Source: Scyliorhinus canicula | Lineage: Eukaryota | Length of the DNA: 64,000 nt | Assembly: GCF_902713615.1 (NCBI RefSeq) | Contig: NC_052149.1 | Location: 188,266,593-188,330,592 of the forward strand | Direction of reading: 5' to 3' | In this document: in pieces, positions 5,683 through 52,289 of the stretch | How the letters are laid out: every line of letters begins with the position of its first letter | How positions within the stretch are numbered: the first letter of the stretch is position 1 | Position numbers and translations under genes: made by a program | The notes under the pieces: model-generated | Database searches by the model: none | What the model was told of the DNA's origin: nothing | Seen by the model: only the letters and a program-made list of their open reading frames with translations

Positions 5683-7767
5683 TAACTGGCTCCCGGGGTC
5701 TACTGGCCTCGTCGAGAAGACGCCAGTAGGTGCCGATTAGCACTGATCCCCACAAGCAGGGGCCAGGCAGCATGGCACTTGGGGATCTCCCAGGTGATTG
5801 GAGGCCTCCGGATGGTTGGTATCTGGGCTGGGTGGTACCCTGGCACTGCTGATGCCACTGAGGCACCTTGGCACTGCCAGCCTGGCAGGGCGCTGCCAGT
5901 GCCAAGGTGTCCAGGTGCCATTTTGCCCATGCTGGGGATCGGGCCCAAGGGTGCCCTGCCCATGGGAGGTGGGGTGTGGTAGGGGGAGCTCGAAGACACC
6001 CCAACAGATAGTTCAGGAGTTGCGTCGGGGGCGGGGGGTGGGGTCAAGAGATCAGGGCACCACAACAAATGCAGCTAAGTGCAGCCTCGACGGACATTCC
6101 CAGTGGAGGCCTGAAAAAAAAAGTGCCGTGAGGTAGCAGTCATTACAATTGCGACAAGCACCAGGAACAACCTCTCCAATCCTGCTAAGAACGGTTAGAC
6201 CGCGCCCAACATGATTTAGATATCTAGGCCTCGGGAGTCTCCTCAGAAGGTATCGCATATTTTCATGTAAAAGTCAAGTTTCTGAGACCAAATCTTTGGC
6301 TGGAAAAAGGGGGAGGCTTGACGAATAATACTTTCTCGGGGTTGAACTCCACCTCTCCTTTCATCTTGCTACCTAACTGTTTACTGGGGTACACTAGCCA
6401 ATCACAGAGTGGCCAGGGCAGAGTTCTCCCCAAATCTAGAGCAAATGAAGCCAAAAAGTATTTTTGTTACTTTGCACAGACACGAGATACTAAACAACCA
6501 TCTTCAAATGAGTAGGTTTGCACCATGGCAAGTTTGCCGTCAGCTGTGAACAAGAGGCAAGTACAAGGAGGTCAGATTTTTTGGCGAAAAGTCAAGAGTC
6601 AACTCACAAGTGAGGTCAACTGTTATTCGAGTATATACAGTTTCTGCTTCTTAGTATTATATCCTGCTTATAATCCGAGGCTGACGATAAGTTGACCTTG
6701 CTTTCTCATTAAGTCATTGACTGACTGCTAGTTACAAACAGATAAAATACAATTATATCAATGCTATGGAACAATGCAGATAATTAAAGCAATCCTGAAG
6801 AGGAATAAGGGGTGCTTTATTAAAGGAATGCATTTGAGAGAAGTAAACACTACATACTCAACATTCCAAGTACATTATACATTTGCCATACTTTTCTTAT
6901 TCATTGTTGCTTATCTCATCATTAAAGTCAGTTTTCATTTTCTCCCTTCGTTTTGTCTGCTTATTTTCCCACCACTACTGGCTGATAAACTGTTTTTTGT
7001 TTCAGATCACATTCCCACCATTCTACTGCCACTAACACTATCAACACCCTATTGAATTTCAATTATTTTCCATGTGCCTGTGTTCACTGCCATGCAGAGT
7101 TTTTTTGGTTCCAAAATCTGTTCCCGACTTCCAACTGCTCTGAGAAATCTCTTGTGCAACATTTCACTGCTGCAATTATCGATCCCTTTAATACCCCAAC
7201 GACTCTCATTATCAGACTGCTGTCAGGACAGCATCTTCTTTTCTATTTCCATGATTTTCCTTTGAAAATGAACTTGCTTAGCAAGTTAGCCGATACTCTG
7301 CAGAATCACAGCATGTGGCTCATTGCTGAATGTTTGAGACAATTATTCTCCCCCGACTCTGGACAAAGTATTTGCTCAAAGATGGCCGTTGTTTTATAAA
7401 ACCACTTGGTGCAGACTGTGGTGAATTATAAACCTCAGTAATTCACACTGTATTGTACCACATGTATTGAGCCTGTACTCTGTACCGGATTGTGTGTAAT
7501 CGCGCGGCCCTGCCCATAGGGGGAGACGAGGAGTTTGTACTGGGCTCCACCCTTGGCTCCGCCCATGGCTCCGCCCATGGCACCTCCCCCAACCGGAAGT
7601 ATAAAAGATCAGTGCTGTGAGCTTGCTGCCAGTTCATCTCGAGTTCACCTCATCACAGGCAGGCTCTGTTGTAAGACGATTAAAACCACTGTTCACTTCA
7701 AACCACGTGTCGCATGTATTGATGGTCTCATCAATTTAATCGTCTTAAGAAACAGTAAGAAACGACT

Positions 7768-8870
7768 ATGGAATCAGCCCTCAAACCTGATCGACTGGAA
7801 CTCGACCCACAGGATGCAGAGGAGAAAGAAATCTTTTCACACTGGCTCAGATGTTTCAAGAAACTACGGAGGAGCAGAAACTCAGCCTACTGCACGCAAG
7901 GGTGAGCCATCGTATCTCTACTCAACTTAATTGTACCAACTCATATACGGAGGCCCTGGCCCTGCTCGACAGAATGTACATGAGGCCCGTCAATGAGGTC
8001 TACGCGCTCCACGTTTTTACGACTCGCCGCCTGCGCCCCACAGAATCGCTAGAGGAATTCCTGCGTGATTTAAAGGCCTTATCCCGGGACTGTAATCATC
8101 AAGCTGTAACTGCTGCCGAACACAGGGAACTCGCTGTCCGAGATGTATTCGTTGCAGGCCTCAGGTCCAACTATGTGCGCCAACGGTTGCTTGAGAAGGG
8201 AGCCCAAAACTTAGAAGACACTGTAGAACTCGCCACTACTATGGAGGTCTCGTTCCGCAGCCTCACCTCGTTCCCGCGGACTCAGCGACCCTGTCATGGG
8301 CCCCCGACTGCCCCAGGCCTGCGCAGCGCGCCACCTAGCCACTATACTGCACCAACGTGCCACTTTTGTGGACAGCCCCAGCACCCGCGGGAGCACTGCC
8401 CGGCCCGCAACGCGACCTGCAGCAGCTGCGGTCGCAAAGGACACTATGCCCGGGTATGCTTGGCAAAGAAAACTCCAGCCCCAAACTCTCTCGCAGCCCA
8501 GAGCACTCGCTCTCCAAACTCGCAGGCCCGCAGGCCCCGTAACGCTGCGGCCTGTACTCCGACTCCACCCCCAACCGTCACGTGCGACCCATGGGGCCGT
8601 CATCTTGGCAACCCCCCACCACGCGGCCGGCCACGTGCGACTCATAGGGGCCGCCATCTTGGACACCATCTTCCTCGCCGCCCGTCACGTGCGATCCACT
8701 TGGGCGGCCATCTTGGGCTCCATCCTCTCCAAACTCAGAAACTCAAATCGAAGACTGCGACCTCAGCGGGCATTCATCACGGGGCCACTCCAGCACAGCT
8801 GATCGAGCCGCCAACTACCCACAACTCAGGGCGGTCACATTGGACCAGTCGCGTCCAAAACACCTCTGAA
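7768..8870 (+). pseudogene. gag: E1 gag (frameshifted)
   Basis: ATG at 7768 reads MESALKPDRLELDPQ; RDVFVAGL motif; tandem zinc knuckles CHFCGQPQHPREHC and CSSCGRKGHYARVC. Confidence 0.88.
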
Positions 8871-8875
8871 ACTCG

Positions 8876-11700
8876 ATGATGACCGTTAAAATCAATGGGT
8901 ACAGTACACCGTGCCTCTTCGACTCCGGGAGCACCGAGAGCTTCGTACACCCAGATCTGGTAAGACGCTGTTCGCTCCCTGTTTTTCCTGCACGGCAAAC
9001 TATCTCCCTCGCTTCGGGCTCCCACTCTGTTCACCTCCAAGGGCACACCGTCGCGACTCTTAACGATCCAATTTTCAAATTTACAATCCAATCCAAAACT
9101 CGAATTTTCAGCTATACGTCCTGCCCGAACTCTGCGCCCCACTCTTACTGGGACTTGATTTCCGGTGTAATCTCAAAAGTCTCACACTGAGCTTCGGCGG
9201 ACCCCTACCTCCACTCACTATCTGCAGTCTAGCGATGCTAAGAATCTCCCCCCCGCCACTCTTTGTCAATCTCACTCCGGACTGTAAACCCGTAGCCACT
9301 CGCAGCAGGCGGTACAGCCTGCAGGACAGGGTGTTTATCAGAACCGAGGTCCGGAGGCTCCTACGTGAGGGGATCATAGAGGCCAGTAACAGCCCCTGGA
9401 GAGTTCAGGTGGTGGTCGTCAAGACCGGGGAAAAATTCCGAATGGTAGTGGACTACAGTCAGACCATTAATCGGTTCACGCTCCTCGATGTGTACCCCCT
9501 CCCCAGGATTGCAGACATGGTGAATCAGATCGCCCAGTATCGTATTTTCTCCACGGTGGATCTGAAGTCTGCATACCACCAGCTCCCAATCCGCCCGGAG
9601 GACCGCCACTAGACGGCGTTCGAGGCCGATGGCCGCCTCTTCCATTTCCTCCAGGTTCCCTTTGGCGTCACGAACGGGGTCTCGGTGTTCCAACGAGCAA
9701 TGGACCAAATGGTGGACCAGTACGGGCTGCGGGCCACGTTTCCGTACTTGGATAACGTCACCATCTGCGGCTATGACCAGCAGGACCACGATGCCAACCT
9801 CCATCGATTTCTCCAGACGGCCCAGAAACTCAACCTCACTTACAACACGGAGAAATGCGTTTTCCGCACGACCAGACTAGCCATCCTCGGCTGTGTCGTG
9901 GAAAACGGAGTCCAGGGCCCCGACCCGGACCGTATGCGCCCCCTCTTAGAACTCCCTCTCCCTCATTGTCCCAGGGCCCTCAAAAGGTGCCTGGGATTCT
10001 TCTCGTATTATGCCCAGTGGGTCCCTCAATATGCGGACAAAGCCCGCCCACTATTTAAGGCCACACTCTTCCCTCTGTCGGATGAGGCTCGTCAGGCCTT
10101 CACTCGGATCAAGGAGGACATCGCCAAAGCGGCCATGCGGGCGGTGGATGAATCCATCCCTTTTCAGGTAGAGAGCGATGCCTCAGAGGTAGCTCTCGCA
10201 GCCACTTTAAATCAGGCAGGGAGACCAGTCGCCTTTTTCTCCCGAACCCTCTCCGCTTTGGAACTTCGACACTCCTCGGTCGAAAAAGAAGCACAAGCCA
10301 TTGTGGAGGCTATTCGTCACTGGAGGCACTACCTCGCAGGTAGAAGGTTCACCTTCATCACCGACCAAAGATCGGTTGCCTTCATGTTTGACAACTCTCA
10401 AAGGGGCAAAATAAAAAATGATAAAATCCTGAGGTGGAGGATCGAACTCTCCACCTACAAATACGATATTATGTATCGACCGGGGAAGCTCAACGAGCCC
10501 CCAGATGCCCTGTCCCGCGGTACGTGCGCCAGCGCAAAAAACGACCGCCTGAAAGCCATCCACAATGACCTCTGCCACCCGGGGGTCACCCGGCTCGCCC
10601 AGTACGTCAAAGCCCAAAATCTGCCTTTCTCCACTGAGGAGGTAAAAGCCATCACCAGTGACTGCCCGATCTGTGCGGAGTGCAAACCGCAATTCTATAG
10701 ACCAGACAGGGCCAACCTGGTCAAGGCTTCTCGGCCCTTTGAACGCCTCGCTATCGATTTCAAAGGGCCACTCCCCTCGACTAATCGGAATGTGTACTTC
10801 CTGAATGTCATCGACGAGTTCTCCCGCTTCCCCTTTGCTATCCCGTGCCCCGATATGACCTCCCACACAGTCATTAGGGCCCTGCATAGCATCTTCACCC
10901 TGTTTGGTTTCCCCAGCTACGTACACAGCGACAGGGGTTCGTCCTTCATAAACGACAAGCTGCGTCAGTACCTGCTTGGCAAGGGCATCGCCTCGAGCAG
11001 GACTACCAGCTATAACCCCAGGGGAACGGGCAGGTGGAGAGGGAGAATGCGACGGTCTGGAAGACCGTCCTACTGACCTTCTGGTCCAGGAAGCTCCCAA
11101 CCTCCCATTGGCAGGAGGTCCTCCCCGACGCGCTCCGTGCTATTAGGTTGCTCCTATGTATGGCCACCAACCAGACCCCTCACGAGCGGCTTTGTTTTTC
11201 CCAGGGGCACTACGACGGGTGCTTCGCTCCCAGCATGGTTGAAGACACCGGACCCAGTACTCCTCCTGAAGCACGTCAGGGCACACAAAACTGACCCACT
11301 CGTAGAAAGAGTGCTCCTACTCCACTCAAACGCCTTCATAGAGTACCCTGACGGCCGTCAGGACACTGTATCCCTCTGGGACCTAGCGCCTGCAGGATCT
11401 AATCCCACCACTACCACCGCCGAGGTACCCCTCACACTACTCCCCACCCAACTCGCCGCACCCCATGCCCCCGCACCTACCGGTTCGCTACCCACGTTCC
11501 GCACACCCGCGCCCACAAGCTTCCAGCACTCCCGGTCACCAGTCGAACCAGTCGGGTACGAAGCTCGGACAGAATCACCCCCGGAGTCCTCCATCGTACC
11601 CCAACCAACCGTTATCGTCCAGCCACCAGAAGAGGTTGCAACTCCAGTGCTCCGCCGATCACAAAGGACAACTCGGCCACCGGACAGACTCAATTTGTAG
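8876..11700 (+). pseudogene. pol: E1 pol (protease, RT, RNase H, integrase) with stops and frameshifts
   Basis: PR LFDSGS; RT FRMVVDY, VDLKSAYHQ, YLDN; RH ESDASEVA, EKEAQAIV; IN H..H..CPIC, IDFKGP, HSDRGSSF, ERENATV. Confidence 0.93.
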
Positions 11701-22920: not shown

Positions 22921-24339
22921 GGGGTGCACAGGAAGGGGGGGGGGGGAGCGGGTTGGCCTGGCCAGGTACCAGCTGGCAACAGTGGCGCCCATGCAGCCCA
23001 TGGCACTTGGCTTCAGAGGAGGGTATGGGCAATGATACCCCCACCCCCTGCAGACAGTTATGTTTGGTCATCACCCAGCGATGTTGGCCGCCTTGGCAGG
23101 AGCCGACCTTCTACATGTTGCCCTGTAGGAGCTGGAGCAGGAACATGCCAGGGAGGCAGCAGAGGCTGCCACAGAGGGGCAGGTGGCAGCCGCCCAAGCA
23201 GGAAAACCGCCCGCCCGACAGGATGAGGAGGAGGAGGAGGAGGAGGAGGAGGAGGAGGAGGTGGTGCCATGGCGATGGAGGCGCCCGATGAGACCCCGTG
23301 TGTACCGGCACCGCTCATCGTACCAGGACCTCACAGACCGGGCATGCAGGAGGAGACTCATGTCTGCCATCTCATGGCACACCTGGCACCGCGTAGCACT
23401 GGGGGAAGACACTCTCTCCCGGTGGCCGTCAAGGTTACTGTGGCCCTGAACTTCTACACGGCGGGGTCATTCCAGTCGTCGAGTGGGGACCTGTCCGGCA
23501 TCTCCCAGGCATCGGTGCACAGGTGCATCCGTGCAGTGACTGACGCCCTGTATGACATCGCAGACCGGTATATCCAGTTCCCTGTGGACCTCACCCACCA
23601 GGATGCCCGGGCAACGGGATTCGCTGCCATAGCCAGGATACCCATGGTCCAGGGGGTGATCAATGGGATGCACGTCGCCTTGCAGCTACCATCAGGTAAC
23701 AGGGCTGTGTTCACGAACAGGAAGGGGACCGACTCCATGAATGTTCATGTGGTCTGTGACCACCGGATGAGGATCATGCACCCGGTACCCACGCCGTGTG
23801 CATTGTTTTGTTACCTGTATGGCAGGTAACATGTGCTACTCAATTCAGTTACAGCATACGCTTTCGGAAAAATGCTCAAAGTCGTCCAGAAGTTTTGCAT
23901 AAAGTTTATTGAGTAACACAACTTAAATAACTGCTTGAGCTCTTACATTAAGAACTGTACTAGTAGAAAGATGTGGAGATGCCGGCGTTGGACTGGGGTG
24001 AGCACAGTAAGAAGTCTTACAACACCAGGTTAAAGTCCAACAGGTTTGTTTCAAACACGAGCTTTCGGAGCACGGCTCCTTCTTCAGGTGAATGGAAAGG
24101 CTTGTTCCAGAAATGTTTATATAGACACAGTCAGAGATGCCCGGAATGCGAGCACCTGCAGGCAATCAAATCATCAAAGATGCAGAGAGAGAGGTAACTC
24201 CAGGTTAAAGAGGTGTGAATTGTCCCAAGCCAGTTCAGTCGGTAGGCCTCTGCAAGTCCAGGCTTGTTGGTGGGGGCCGAATGTAATGCGACATGAATCC
24301 CAGATCCCGGTTGAGTCCGCATTCATGCGTGCGGAACTT

Positions 24340-25822
24340 CTGTCGCGACACGACGGACTTCCTACAGAAACTCAGCACCCATGGACCAGTTGAACCAGGA
24401 ACATTCCTCGTCACAATGGATGTCTCGGCACTCTACACCAGCATCCCCCATGACGACGGCATTGCTGCAACAGCCTCAGTCCTCAACACCGACAACTGCC
24501 AATCTCCAGACGCAATTCTGCAACTCATCCGTTTCATTCTAGACCACAACGTCTTCACCTTCGACAACAAATTCTTCATCCAGACGCACGGAACAGCCAT
24601 GGGGACCAAATTTGCACCTCAATATGCCAACATCTTCATGCACAAGTTTGAACAGGACTTCCTCACCACACAGGACTTTCAACCGATGCTATACACCAGA
24701 TACATCGATGACATTTTTTTCCTTTGGACCCACGGCGAGACATCACTGAAACGACTACACGATGACATCAATAAGTTCCATCCCACCATCAAACTCACCA
24801 TGGACTATTCTCCAAATTCAGTTCCATTCTTGGACACACTCGTCTCCATCAAGGACGGTCACCTCAGCACCTCGCTTTACCGCAAGCCCACAGATAATCT
24901 CACAATGCTCCACTTCTCCAGCTTTCACCCGAAACACATTAAAGAAGCCATCCCCTATGGACAAGCCCTCCGTATACACAGGATCTGCTCAGACAAGGAG
25001 GAGCGCAACAGACACCTACAGATGCTGAAAGATGCCCTCGTACGAACGGGATATGGCGCTCGACTCATTGATCGACAGTTCCACCGCGCCACAGCAAAAA
25101 ACCGCACCGACCTCCTCAGAAGACAAACACGGGACACCACTGACAGAGTACCCTTCGTCGTCCAGTACTTTCCTGGGGCGGAGAAACTACGACATCTTCT
25201 TCGCAGCCTCCAACACATCATCAGCGAGGATGGACATCTTGCCAAGGTCATCCCCACACCCCCACTACTGGCCTTCAAACAACCGCGCAACCTCAAACAA
25301 ACCATTGTTTGCAGCAAATTACCCAGCCTTCAGAACAGCAACCACAACACCACAAAACCCTGCCAGGGTAATCTCTGCAAGACATGCCAGATCATCGACA
25401 TGGACACCACCATTACACGTGGAAACACCACCCACCAGGTACGCGGCGCATACTCGTGCGACTCGACCAATGTAGTCTACCTCATACGCTGCAGGAAAGG
25501 ATGTCCCGAAGCGTGGTACATTGGCGAGACCATGCAGACACTGCGACAACGAATAAACGGGCATCGTGCGACTATCAACAGGCAGGACTGTTCCCTTCCA
25601 GTTGGGGAACACTTCAGCAGTCAAGGACATTCAGCCTCTGATCTCCGGGTCAGCATTCTACAAGGAGGCCTTCAGGAGACGCGACAACGCAAAATTGCTG
25701 AGCAAAAACTTATAGCTAAGTTCCGCACGCATGAATGCGGACTCAACCGGGATCTGGGATTCATGTCGCATTACATTCGGCCCCCACCAACAAGCCTGGA
25801 CTTGCAGAGGCCTACCGACTGA
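24340..25822 (+). CDS. Penelope RT plus GIY-YIG endonuclease (N-terminally truncated, otherwise open)
   Basis: MDVSALYTSIP, QTHGTAMG, RYIDD, FLD; GIY-YIG domain VVYLIRC..WYIGET..LRQRINGH..EQKLI..GLN. Confidence 0.94.
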
Positions 25823-25966
25823 ACTGGCTTGGGACAATTCACACCTCTTTAACCTGGAGTTACCTCTCTCTCTGCATCTTTGATGATTTGATTGCCTGCA
25901 GGTGCTCGCATTCCGGGCATCTCTGACTGTGTCTATATAAACATTTCTGGAACAAGCCTTTCCATT

Positions 25967-26001
25967 CACCTGAAGAAGGAGCCGTGCTCCGAAAGCTCGT
26001 G
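25967..26001 (+). ncRNA. Minimal type I hammerhead ribozyme in the Penelope pseudo-LTR (second copy on - at 24056-24090)
   Basis: CAC-CTGAAGA-A-GGAGC(CGT)GCTCC-GAAA-GCTC-GTG: CUGANGA core, stem II, GAAA, short self-complementary stem III, stem I CAC/GTG. Confidence 0.82.
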
Positions 26002-27172
26002 TTTGAAACAAACCTGTTGGACTTTAACCTGGTGTTGTAAGACTTCTTACTAGTAGAAAGGTTACAACTTTTCTATACACTAGAACTAGGCCTGAACACA
26101 CAAGCAGCCCTGAACTATATCGCTGCCTTTGTTCTCCTCACAGTCTAATCAACCAAAGAGCCTTGAGGGCTGCTTGCTTCCCCCTTTATACCCGCCAGTG
26201 CTGCCCCCTAGTGGTCTTTCCATTTCCCATCAGCCCCTTCTGTACATAACTATGTGAAGATCACTACATGCATGACTCTTTCATTGGTACAATGTCGGGG
26301 TGTGGTCGAGAGGGGCTTTGGGCTTCTGAAGATGCGCTTCAGGTGGCTGGACTGCTCTGGAGGGGCCCTCCAGTACACTTCGGAGAGGGTTGGCTGCATC
26401 GTTGTGGTCTGCTGCATCCTGCACAACATAGCCCAGCAGAGGGGCGATGTGCTGGAGGCAGAGGAGGGGGAGGGGAAGCAACACAACAAAGGGCAGGCCT
26501 CCCCAGATGAGGAGGACGGGGGCAATGTACAGGACAGACAGGCTGGACATGGACGGGAGGCTGCCCACCGTTACCAGCTGACCCAGCGGGCACAGGACGG
26601 GCTGATAGCCGCACGGTTCACAGACTTGGGGATTGTGGGAATCGCCGAGTATGGGCACGGACAGCACAGTACGGCACCAGCCCACCATCCTCACCCCACC
26701 CACCCTCACCCCACCCGCATGTACACCACCCCTCCATTGCACATCCACCTGCGGGACAAGGGGCAGACTCACACTGTCACCAGTGGAAGCGGATCTATTG
26801 CATGCCATGGAGGATGATGACGACCCGCTCTGTGATGAGCTCTGGGCTCTACATCGTTGGACAATGTCTGACTCGTGGCCACAGTAAGACCGTCCACCTA
26901 GACCGTCCCTGCATGCGGCCGTGACACTGCAGCGCACGGTCTGCCCGGGGGACTGGCGAGGGCGACCCGGGGAGGAGGGGGCACACTCACCTGAACCTGA
27001 CGTCCTATCACCCCTCACAAACACACTGGCGCTCACCTCACACCCCACCCCTGAATGCATCGGACAGAGCACAGAGGCAGCTTCAGTAGGTGTGAAAGTG
27101 ATTTTAATGGCAAACAGTTCATACACATGCCCTAACCCCTGTAACTAACCTGTGCCCTGCACCCTTGCCAAC

Positions 27173-49762: not shown

Positions 49763-50173
49763 TGGATTAGGGGCTATTCAACAGCTGACCTTAGGTTTCA
49801 TTTAAATGAAACAGTCGAGGGCGTATCCCCAAGCAGTCTGCCAAGTAAACAAGTTTTTAAAAGAACTCTAGGCCCTGAAAATAAAAATAAAAGAGCCTTT
49901 GCTTGCTGCTAGTTTATACTAGGTTATCAAATATGTATAAAAAGGAGTAAAAAGCAAAGTACTGCAGATGCTGGAATCTGAAATTGAAAATGCCGGAAAA
50001 TCTCAGCTGGCCTGACAGCATCTGTGGAGAGAGAGAAGGGATTCTGACTCAAAACATTAGCTCTATTCTCGCTCTACGATTCTGTCAGAGCTGCTGAAAT
50101 TGTCCAGCATTTTCTGTTTTTGTGCAAAATTAGGGTTGTCCGATTCGGGGTAAACGCAGATGGAATGCCTCCC

Positions 50174-51398
50174 TGTGGCGCTAACAATTGCACACAAAGA
50201 CTCAAGACATGTACAATCAAGGCTTTATTGCTGTGTGATGCTATTCCTCCAGCGGAAGCTTTAGAATAGGATCTCTGTGACTCACACGCATATTTATACA
50301 CAAGCACCCTGTGGGCGGAGGTAGCCGGCAGGGGCTTACCGGAGGAACCTGTATTACAGGTACAGCCATACATCCCCCTACTGCAAGTACACATATCTAC
50401 AGTGGTTATATCACCACATTCACCCCCTGTAAAAAATGAGTCCGGCGGGGGTGACGTGTAACTATAATACAAAGGATGACCTATATGCAAAAGGGTTCAA
50501 ACAAAGAAAAGCAAGAGTCCATCCGGTTAGCAGGTTACAGGTTGAGCCGAATCGGCGGTCGAACATTCTGCTGTGATCGGCGTAGCTGTGGTGGCGACGT
50601 CGGCACAGGCGGTGATGGCAACGATGGTGCAGGTGCTAGCGGGATGACTCAGAGAGTGAGCCAAAATCTTCCGTGTCCTCCAGTGTGGGCAGGGGGACGA
50701 GGGATGGACCTGGTGGGGACGAATACGGGGGCGCCGGGGAAAGAGAGGGTGGCGCGGGGGGGGAAAGGTGCGTGGGCATGGGATCAGCACCTGAGGAAGC
50801 CAGGTCCTGGAGCGAGACTGTGTCCTGGCGGCCGTCGGGGAACTCCACGTAGGCATACTGAGGGTTGGCGTGGAGTAGGCGTACTTTGTCCACCAGTGGT
50901 TACTTCCGTCTTGTGGTGCCGGACATGCCTATGGAGAAGGACTGGGCCCGGAGTCGTGAGCCAAGTCTTGAGTGCAGGAGTTGTCTTTTTTGAGCCTCCG
51001 TCGGGGGAGGGTCCGCTGAAGAGATGTAGGCCTCGAAGACTGCAAGCCAGTGAACAAAGTCTTTCCTGGCGTGAGGCGACTGCGGATCCAGCTGCAGACA
51101 GTCAGGCTTGATCCTAATGTCCATGGTGTAAGGAAAATCACACAGCAATAAATTGTGCTGCTAACAATTGCACACAAAGATTCGAGACATGTACAATCGA
51201 GGCTTTATTGCTGTGTGATGCTATTCCTCCGGCGGCAGCTGTAGAATAGGATCTCAGTGACTCACACGCATAGTTATACACAAGCTCCCTGTGGGCGGAG
51301 CTAGCCGGCAGGGGCTTACCGGAGGAACCTGTATTACAGGTACAGCCATACATTCCCCTACTGCAAGAACACATATCTACAGTGGTTATATCACCACA
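50174..51398 (-). mobile_element. Internally deleted Gypsy element (E3), same lineage as E1 and E2
   Basis: LTRs 51154-51398 (5') and 50174-50418 (3'); TSD CTCCC at 50169-50173 and 51399-51403; gag start MDIRIKPDCLQLDPQ joined to an integrase tail LLHANPQYAYVEFPDGRQDTVSL; PPT ACAGGGGGTGAA. Confidence 0.94.
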
Positions 51399-52289
51399 CT
51401 CCCTCAAATCAGCAATGAGGATTTCACACTACAATATGGCAACTGAAGCTCTTAGCTAAAGACTTTCTTCTCTTCCTATTTTTCCAGTTTCTGTCAACTC
51501 TCAGACTCACTTAAGGTTTTACCCCATTTCCAGGAGATGGATTCATCCCAATCAATATTTTATTTTAAACTGGAAGAGAAAAACAGTGATGATTGAAACA
51601 TGTGATTAGCACCATAAACACCCGAAGAAAAGTTGTGTCTGGTTTCAAATCGGGCTATAGCATCATTGCAAAGTTGATAAAGTGAGGAAAAATCAACTCA
51701 AGCTCTAAATTGGCAACTTGGTGTTTAGTTTGCAATGCTGCGATCTGTCGTGCGAATATAACAGGATGTAGGTACAGCAGTCCTGTTTTCTGGCAATTGC
51801 AGAATGTCGTTTGTGCTCAAACTCTTGCAAAAGCATTTAAATTTTGCACAGAAATTAATTGGAGCCTTTTTTGTGCAGATCACACCAACCAGTAAAATGT
51901 ACCATTATTTGTAAACTCCGAAGAACTGACTTTCTGTGGTTGATTTTATGTTCAACTGCAGCGACAACAACCCTGAAATCATTTTGCAGCTTACAATTTC
52001 TAGCTGAAAATTACCAATTAGATTTGTTGCTGATGTTGTTTCTAAGGGCTGGAATTTTCATAACGCCCAGAAGTTAGAACCAAACCAAACATGACCCCAC
52101 TGTGCAGATGTTAATTCCTCCCCCAAATTTCTTGTGAATGTTATTATATTATGCCCAAATGAAAAAAAGGGCATAAATCAGTCGAAGTGGCGTAAACAAA
52201 TGTAGCCCAAGGAAAGTGTCAAACTCACACCATATATTCCTTCATTAAGTTTGAAAATTCAGGTTTCAAGTCATTTAACCACTGTTTGT

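Follow-up and report, generated by a model that had tools for sequence, protein, structure and literature searches.

A Ty3/Gypsy clade in the genome of the shark Scyliorhinus canicula (4.2 Gb) carries, at the primer-binding-site (PBS) position, a leader that pairs with an arm inside its own LTR, and this tRNA-free design of the primer site is clade-wide. On the comparative sequence evidence, the leader probably serves self-priming, with the LTR arm as the predicted primer, and we put the probability of this reading at roughly 0.7. The helix is a trait of the whole clade rather than of one copy alone, namely, E3, a minus-strand LTR element at positions 50174 to 51398 of the stretch of 64,000 nucleotides that was analyzed (the window), in which a 16-bp version of the helix was originally predicted.

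E3 and its relatives in the window

E3 has the TG...CA LTRs, the polypurine tract (PPT), and the target-site duplication (TSD) of a Ty3/Gypsy LTR retrotransposon, and 231 of 245 positions are identical between its two LTRs (Table 1). Plus-strand positions 51137 to 51152 (ATCACACAGCAATAAA), in the leader, are complementary at 16 of 16 positions to positions 51204 to 51219 (TTTATTGCTGTGTGAT), and the single spacer base 51153 separates the leader arm from the end of the 5' LTR at 51154, exactly as the original prediction had placed them. In 20,000 LTR shuffles, no complement to the first 20 bases of the leader exceeded 11 nt, compared with the 16 nt observed.

Table 1. Features of E3 and of the related elements E1 and E2, by position in the window
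Feature	Position	Strand	Remarks
E1, near-complete broken relative	7418..12059	+	gag-PR-RT-RNaseH-IN order; 13-bp helix version ending ATTAAA
E2, internally deleted relative	12246..13877	+	12- to 13-bp helix version ending ATTAAA
E3 5' LTR	51154..51398	-	245 bp, TG...CA
E3 TATA-like box	51272..51278	-	motif prediction; initiator-like motif 31 nt downstream
E3 predicted transcript start	near 51247	-	predicted from TATA and initiator motifs
E3 LTR arm	51204..51219	-	predicted self-primer; ends in AATAAA at 51209-51204
E3 50-nt loop (3' part of R plus U5)	51154..51203	-	predicted template of strong-stop DNA
E3 primer-binding-site position	51137..51152	-	complements LTR arm; one base past terminal CA; no TGG
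E3 gag 5' remnant	50958..51124	-	ATG 29 nt past LTR end
E3 10-nt microhomology at internal deletion junction	50958..50967	-	private among scored copies
E3 integrase C-terminal remnant	50535..50957	-	matches 3' end of longer family copies
E3 T-run, polypurine tract, and 2-nt spacer ahead of 3' LTR	50419..50436	-	
E3 3' LTR	50174..50418	-	carries same arm; downstream complement absent
E3 5-bp target-site duplication CTCCC	50169..50173 and 51399..51403	.	flanks both sides

Between its LTRs, E3 holds a 5' remnant of gag and a 3' remnant of the integrase, fused at a microhomology of 10 nt that longer family copies carry on both sides of the deleted segment. The deletion junction was spanned by none of the 39 other scored matches (40 of 2770 candidates scored), and E3 is therefore a copy of a longer family with a deletion that is private among the scored copies. 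The proposal that deleted copies had been mobilized in trans found no support in these matches or in the microhomology at the junction, and a TRIM-like nonautonomous family moved in trans was rejected, the internal deletion being shared by 0 of the 39 other matches and the E3 junction being the only one considered. Likewise, the retention of the motif in the deleted elements E2 and E3 had been taken as a sign of function. Any internal deletion leaves the ends in place, so retention is uninformative on any selection that followed it; what stands of the claim is a cis element that is conserved with compensatory change.

From the 40 scored loci of 3172 candidates, 30 E3-family loci, E3 included, were retrieved, a sample biased toward similar copies because the query held both arms. 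The helix had 16 of 16 pairs in 20 of these loci, 15 in 9, and 14 in 1, such that the complementarity was missing from no member of the family sample. In addition, L218, an E3-type element found independently through its PPT, differs from E3 by a two-sided change within the helix. Arm conservation among the 30 copies is uninformative as proof of selection, because the arms vary about as little (1.0 to 1.3%) as U3 does (1.6%). The E3 transcript is predicted to begin with a small hairpin that lies directly before the arm (51222 to 51248) and has no Rfam match.

The LTR-leader junctions of E1 and E2 were moved one base by inspection before counting. The RT active-site motif of E1 is YLDN rather than YxDD (window positions 9748 to 9759), and a literature search on this motif yielded nothing relevant. 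E2 has no 5-bp target duplication, and its 5' LTR lacks the first 2 bases. Approximately 186 bp that follow the 3' LTR of E1 recur, 92% identical, after the 3' LTR of E2 (12060 to 12245 and 13878 to 14044), and this E1-X-E2-X arrangement is possibly the product of an aberrant or recombinational insertion. Elsewhere in the window, a 511-amino-acid RT open reading frame (ORF) with a GIY-YIG-like end is flanked by perfect inverted repeats of 334 bp (24006 to 26051); this element, which resembles a young Penelope-type element, is inserted in Harbinger-like ORFs (approximately 23227 to 23829 and 26212 to 26817). At 14658 to 14826 lies a perfect inverted repeat of 81 bp, its arms 7 nt apart.

Prevalence and covariation of the helix

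The PPT-LTR junction shared by the clade occurs 7543 times in the shark genome (control, 0). A 5' LTR within 5.2 kb was present at 54 of the first 100 of these junctions, and the junction filters left 38. Among the first 60 loci, 30 were dropped for want of a 5' LTR within 5.2 kb and 8 for rearranged or unresolved LTR ends, and among the next 40, 16 were dropped for want of a 5' LTR and 8 because they failed a filter of CA plus TSD. Together with E1 to E3, the 38 loci made up a shark set of 41 elements in 12 LTR families, and in 39 of the 41, the arm of either LTR paired with 11 or more of the 13 leader bases. In a first set of 25 shark and 10 other elements, 32 of 35 reached 11 bp using the 5' LTR; the same threshold was reached by 0 of 35 flanks of the 3' LTR, by 0 of 35 leaders at +40, and by 30 of 1108 family swaps. 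From 15 non-shark repeat pairs, five were dropped (two contig-end repeats and three unresolved junctions).

A blind scan of 50 non-shark metagenome and metagenome-assembled-genome (MAG) loci gave 18 matches, one of them probably a simple repeat, and left 32 loci without a match under its strict settings; a control window in pol gave 1 match in 50. The helix was seen in shark and in metagenome and MAG contigs, with rays, sea anemone, nematode, and insect represented by protein relatives alone. The loci L117 to L130 are animal-type retrotransposons in bacterial MAG contigs of GTDB genomes and are probably host contamination. Three clade PPT-LTR junctions lie within 9 kb on one strand at G000:C1:26936500-26945542, a possible tandem or nested array.

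The geometry of the helix is narrow. Its start lies one base past the terminal CA, both in the representatives of the families and at 15 of the 18 matched non-shark loci; among the 16 family representatives, the helix is 12 to 16 bp long and its arm ends 37 to 55 nt ahead of the LTR end, with loops of up to 65 nt in the non-shark scan. At pairs 5 to 12, 121 of 128 cells were paired across the 16 families, compared with a mean of 64 and a maximum of 89 in permutations whose swaps ignore relatedness. RNAalifold returned one helix only, in which both sides change at 7 of 12 pairs; sliding the partner abolished pairing, in a control that likewise ignores relatedness. Counted over elements in which 10 or more of the 13 pairs formed, the helix contained 478 Watson-Crick pairs, 2 G-U pairs, and 14 other combinations, as raw, uncalibrated counts. 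Young families, too, show two-sided helix changes, which in the L187 family affect 6 of 29 copies, all in one sublineage.

The switch between AATAAA/TTTATT and ATTAAA/TTTAAT, which had been predicted to be compensatory, proved to be real: the two versions were found in 7 and 13, respectively, of 20 aligned elements, none of them unpaired. The reading of the motif as a cis element, conserved and with a compensatory exchange within its hexamer, is supported. That the complementarity arose by chance or as an inverted duplication without function is hardly credible, being refuted by the shuffles, by the flank, offset, and swap controls, by the control clades described below, and by the covariation.

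In the L196 family, the arm base opposite an inherited mismatch is fixed in 28 of 28 copies, and the leader pairs with it in 8 copies and fails to do so in 20, which counts against the self-priming reading. This distribution requires four changes on the gag tree, at a borderline AU P value of 0.049 and with homoplasy common. Repeated repair from the primer is suggestive only, because homoplasy is common and RNA (A-to-I) editing is an alternative.

At the very end of U5, all 12 shark families carry a further hairpin of 5 to 6 bp (shuffle mean, 3.2 bp), both sides of which change from family to family; it has only 2 to 4 bp in six non-shark families, and the E3 version (51153 to 51175) is atypical. 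A search of Rfam gave one chance-level match only (E = 0.66) and no known RNA family or ribozyme.

The primer site and the poly(A) signal

None of 51 clade elements had TGG among the first 6 bases of its leader. Control Gypsy elements of the same genome (Mag-like and integrase-before-RT) had TGG in 10 of 10 cases and self-complement scores of 4 to 6; these 10 were the CA-bounded LTR pairs kept from 20 retrieved loci, of which 8 had no LTR pair and 2 had no CA end. We assume the control clades to be Mag-like and Gmr1-like from motifs and domain order. No tRNA gene lies within the 64-kb window. Priming by a tRNA half, a tRNA fragment, or another host RNA, with the LTR match as a secondary feature, has a precedent in the half-tRNA priming reported for some Copia lineages (PMC6317226); it is very improbable here, as the leader changes between families in step with the arm and one host primer cannot follow such changes.

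In the proposed self-priming, transcription would start near position 51247, and the arm (51219 to 51204) would pair with the leader (51152 to 51137), closing the 50-nt loop. The RNA would be cut directly 3' of AAUAAA, most likely by the RNase H of the element itself, as in Tf1, in which the first 11 bases are described as pairing with the PBS before RNase H cuts (PMC7175516). RT would then copy approximately 50 nt of U5 and R as the strong stop, which would jump to the 3' end by way of the stretch of approximately 20 nt that separates the poly(A) site from the hexamer, and plus-strand synthesis would copy the primer and regenerate the binding site. Such copying would couple the two arms in evolution, and the near absence of G-U pairs would be expected if the site is re-copied from the primer. 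Retroviral progeny are reported to inherit either the primer or the PBS sequence (PMC4549124). The fixed +1 register also favors a primer, since a primer defines a DNA end and a masking helix need not be fixed.

Of the 12 shark families, 8 had a predicted TATA box with an initiator at +30 to +32 (background, 4%), placing the start, from motifs only, 29 to 54 nt upstream of the arm end and 13 to 41 nt upstream of the arm in these families; the transcript start was not visible in four RNA runs of low read depth. Because the start would lie so close to the arm end, the primer might also act in trans or without RNase H, as a short capped RNA of approximately 30 to 55 nt from any LTR of the family that ends at the hexamer through premature termination or a host nuclease. 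The 7543 PPT-LTR junctions imply thousands of clade LTRs as sources of such an RNA, which would explain the same covariation, and the conserved third duplex of the Tf1 "pretzel" is absent (6.3 bp in real and 6.6 bp in swapped sequences). That absence also counts against the self-priming reading, as it leaves cut-site recognition without a candidate structure. Short RNAs of this kind were not seen in the RNA runs, whose libraries were of a type that would have missed them. The constrained loop, of 37 to 55 nt and up to 65 nt, suits folding in cis, and a primer supplied in trans or freed without RNase H is considered unlikely.

Besides its predicted role in self-priming, the arm bears on polyadenylation. 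The arms of the shark elements end in ATTAAA (29 elements) or AATAAA (11 elements), i.e., in a canonical hexamer in 40 of 41, and the hexamer may be a true poly(A) signal in shark: in one of the four RNA runs, five molecules end 20 nt past the hexamer of the E1 3' LTR, a weak signal whose strandedness was deduced. In the shark families, the helix would conceal the 5' poly(A) signal, the leader being present only past the 5' LTR, and the helix folds at the 5' LTR only (z score of -3.6, versus +0.45 for the 3' LTR). Sense reads that span the LTR-leader junction are present at low depth, and the HIV-1 polyA hairpin, likewise a helix that includes AAUAAA, is reported to repress the 5' poly(A) site (PMC2645353). 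In shark, masking of this kind at the 5' LTR is plausible as a second role. It may even be the main one, with priming using something else; the hexamers of the 40 shark arms are explained equally well in this way, and they count to that extent against the self-priming reading.

Masking as the main role is nevertheless improbable. It would leave the element without a primer site, given the missing TGG, and the fixed +1 register and the near absence of G-U pairs would be unaccounted for. Outside shark, the arm ends are canonical in 9 of 17 elements and noncanonical in 8 of 17 (GTTAAA, TTTAAA, TTAAAA, and ATAAAA), and a separate, unmasked AWTAAA lies downstream of the arm in the non-shark loci L038, L039, L124, and L125 and in L101, although the hosts may use variant signals. 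Masking alone is insufficient because the register, the missing PBS, and the noncanonical ends are left unexplained. Since non-shark hexamers are often noncanonical, it is the A-rich end of the arm, TAAA in most cases, in the +1 register that is conserved. The emphasis of the original prediction on the poly(A) signal was right in that the hexamer lies in the helix and too narrow in that the helix occupies the PBS position and, outside shark, often ends in a noncanonical hexamer.

The clade and known self-priming elements

The relatives of E3 have a single ORF of approximately 1100 to 1300 amino acids, with E1 and its relatives in the order PR-RT-RNase H-integrase. The best solved-structure match of E1 is Ty3, and the best named protein relatives come from catsharks and rays; protein relatives also occur in a sea anemone, a nematode, and an insect. 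A chromodomain was found in 0 of 11 proteins at an E value of ≤0.1, and PF00385 was listed for 0 of 120 relatives. In an RT-RNase H tree, the clade stands on its own (support, 100/100), apart from Mag-like and integrase-before-RT references and separate from three chromodomain-bearing proteins and one DUF4939 protein, with long branches and weak deep nodes. No published clade name was matched through protein names, the Atlas, the PDB, or papers, and no relative of the clade was found among viral contigs. Cigr-1, MolGy/PolGy, and Saci2 likewise have a single gag-pol ORF of approximately 1200 amino acids and short LTRs and occur in several phyla. The clade presumably resembles Cigr-1. Saci2 is reported to have target duplications of 4 bp (PMC12471100), versus 5 bp in the shark element. 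The term "PBS" is absent from the parts covered of two surveys of metazoan Gypsy clades (PMC8556966 and PMC6238403).

Self-priming has been tied to Tf1/sushi and Tcn1 chromoviruses and to one plant Copia lineage in the sections covered of the relevant papers (PMC3601003, PMC6317226, PMC7175516, PMC6934838, PMC5006619, PMC11042837, and PMC8220671). In the Tf1/sushi group (Tf1, Tf2, Tj1, Tosmo, and sushi; Tcn1 clade), which likewise belongs to Ty3/Gypsy, the PBS position is described as complementing RNA derived from the element's own LTR (bioRxiv 10.1101/2022.12.06.519325; PMC7175516), and the pretzel is described as the three-duplex structure of this group (bioRxiv 10.1101/2022.12.06.519325). 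Unlike Tf1/sushi, the shark clade has no chromodomain and no third pretzel duplex and forms a separate RT-RNase H clade, in a tree that took in no named Tf1/sushi sequence. Its primer is predicted to lie 13 to 41 nt inside the transcript, whereas that of Tf1 lies at the transcript 5' end, and its helix has 12 to 16 bp, ending on the poly(A) hexamer in shark, compared with 11 in Tf1. Self-priming is likewise predicted outside Tf1/sushi for the plant Ty1/Copia elements TAR, Houba, and Osr-1, of the Copia superfamily (PMC6317226). The HIV hairpin forms at both ends, whereas the partner strand in the shark clade is the PBS position, present at the 5' end only. In the literature covered on priming, poly(A) masking, and clade identity, with subscription papers and Repbase outside that coverage, no description of the trait was found.

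A tentative extension, possible rather than probable, is that self-priming had an independent origin in this widespread, nonchromoviral clade of animal Gypsy elements, with an internal primer that ends on the poly(A) signal and a helix that would also silence the 5' poly(A) site and repair itself in each cycle. Self-priming has been discussed as bearing on whether hairpin priming came before tRNA priming (PMC3601003). If the self-priming reading is true, this separate clade, present in thousands of copies in the genome of a single shark, would contribute both a new data point and a new geometry for self-priming. A simple account of how an LTR element escapes its own 5' poly(A) signal would follow as well, and annotations of the type "no PBS found" would be explained, with a sequence test for them supplied.
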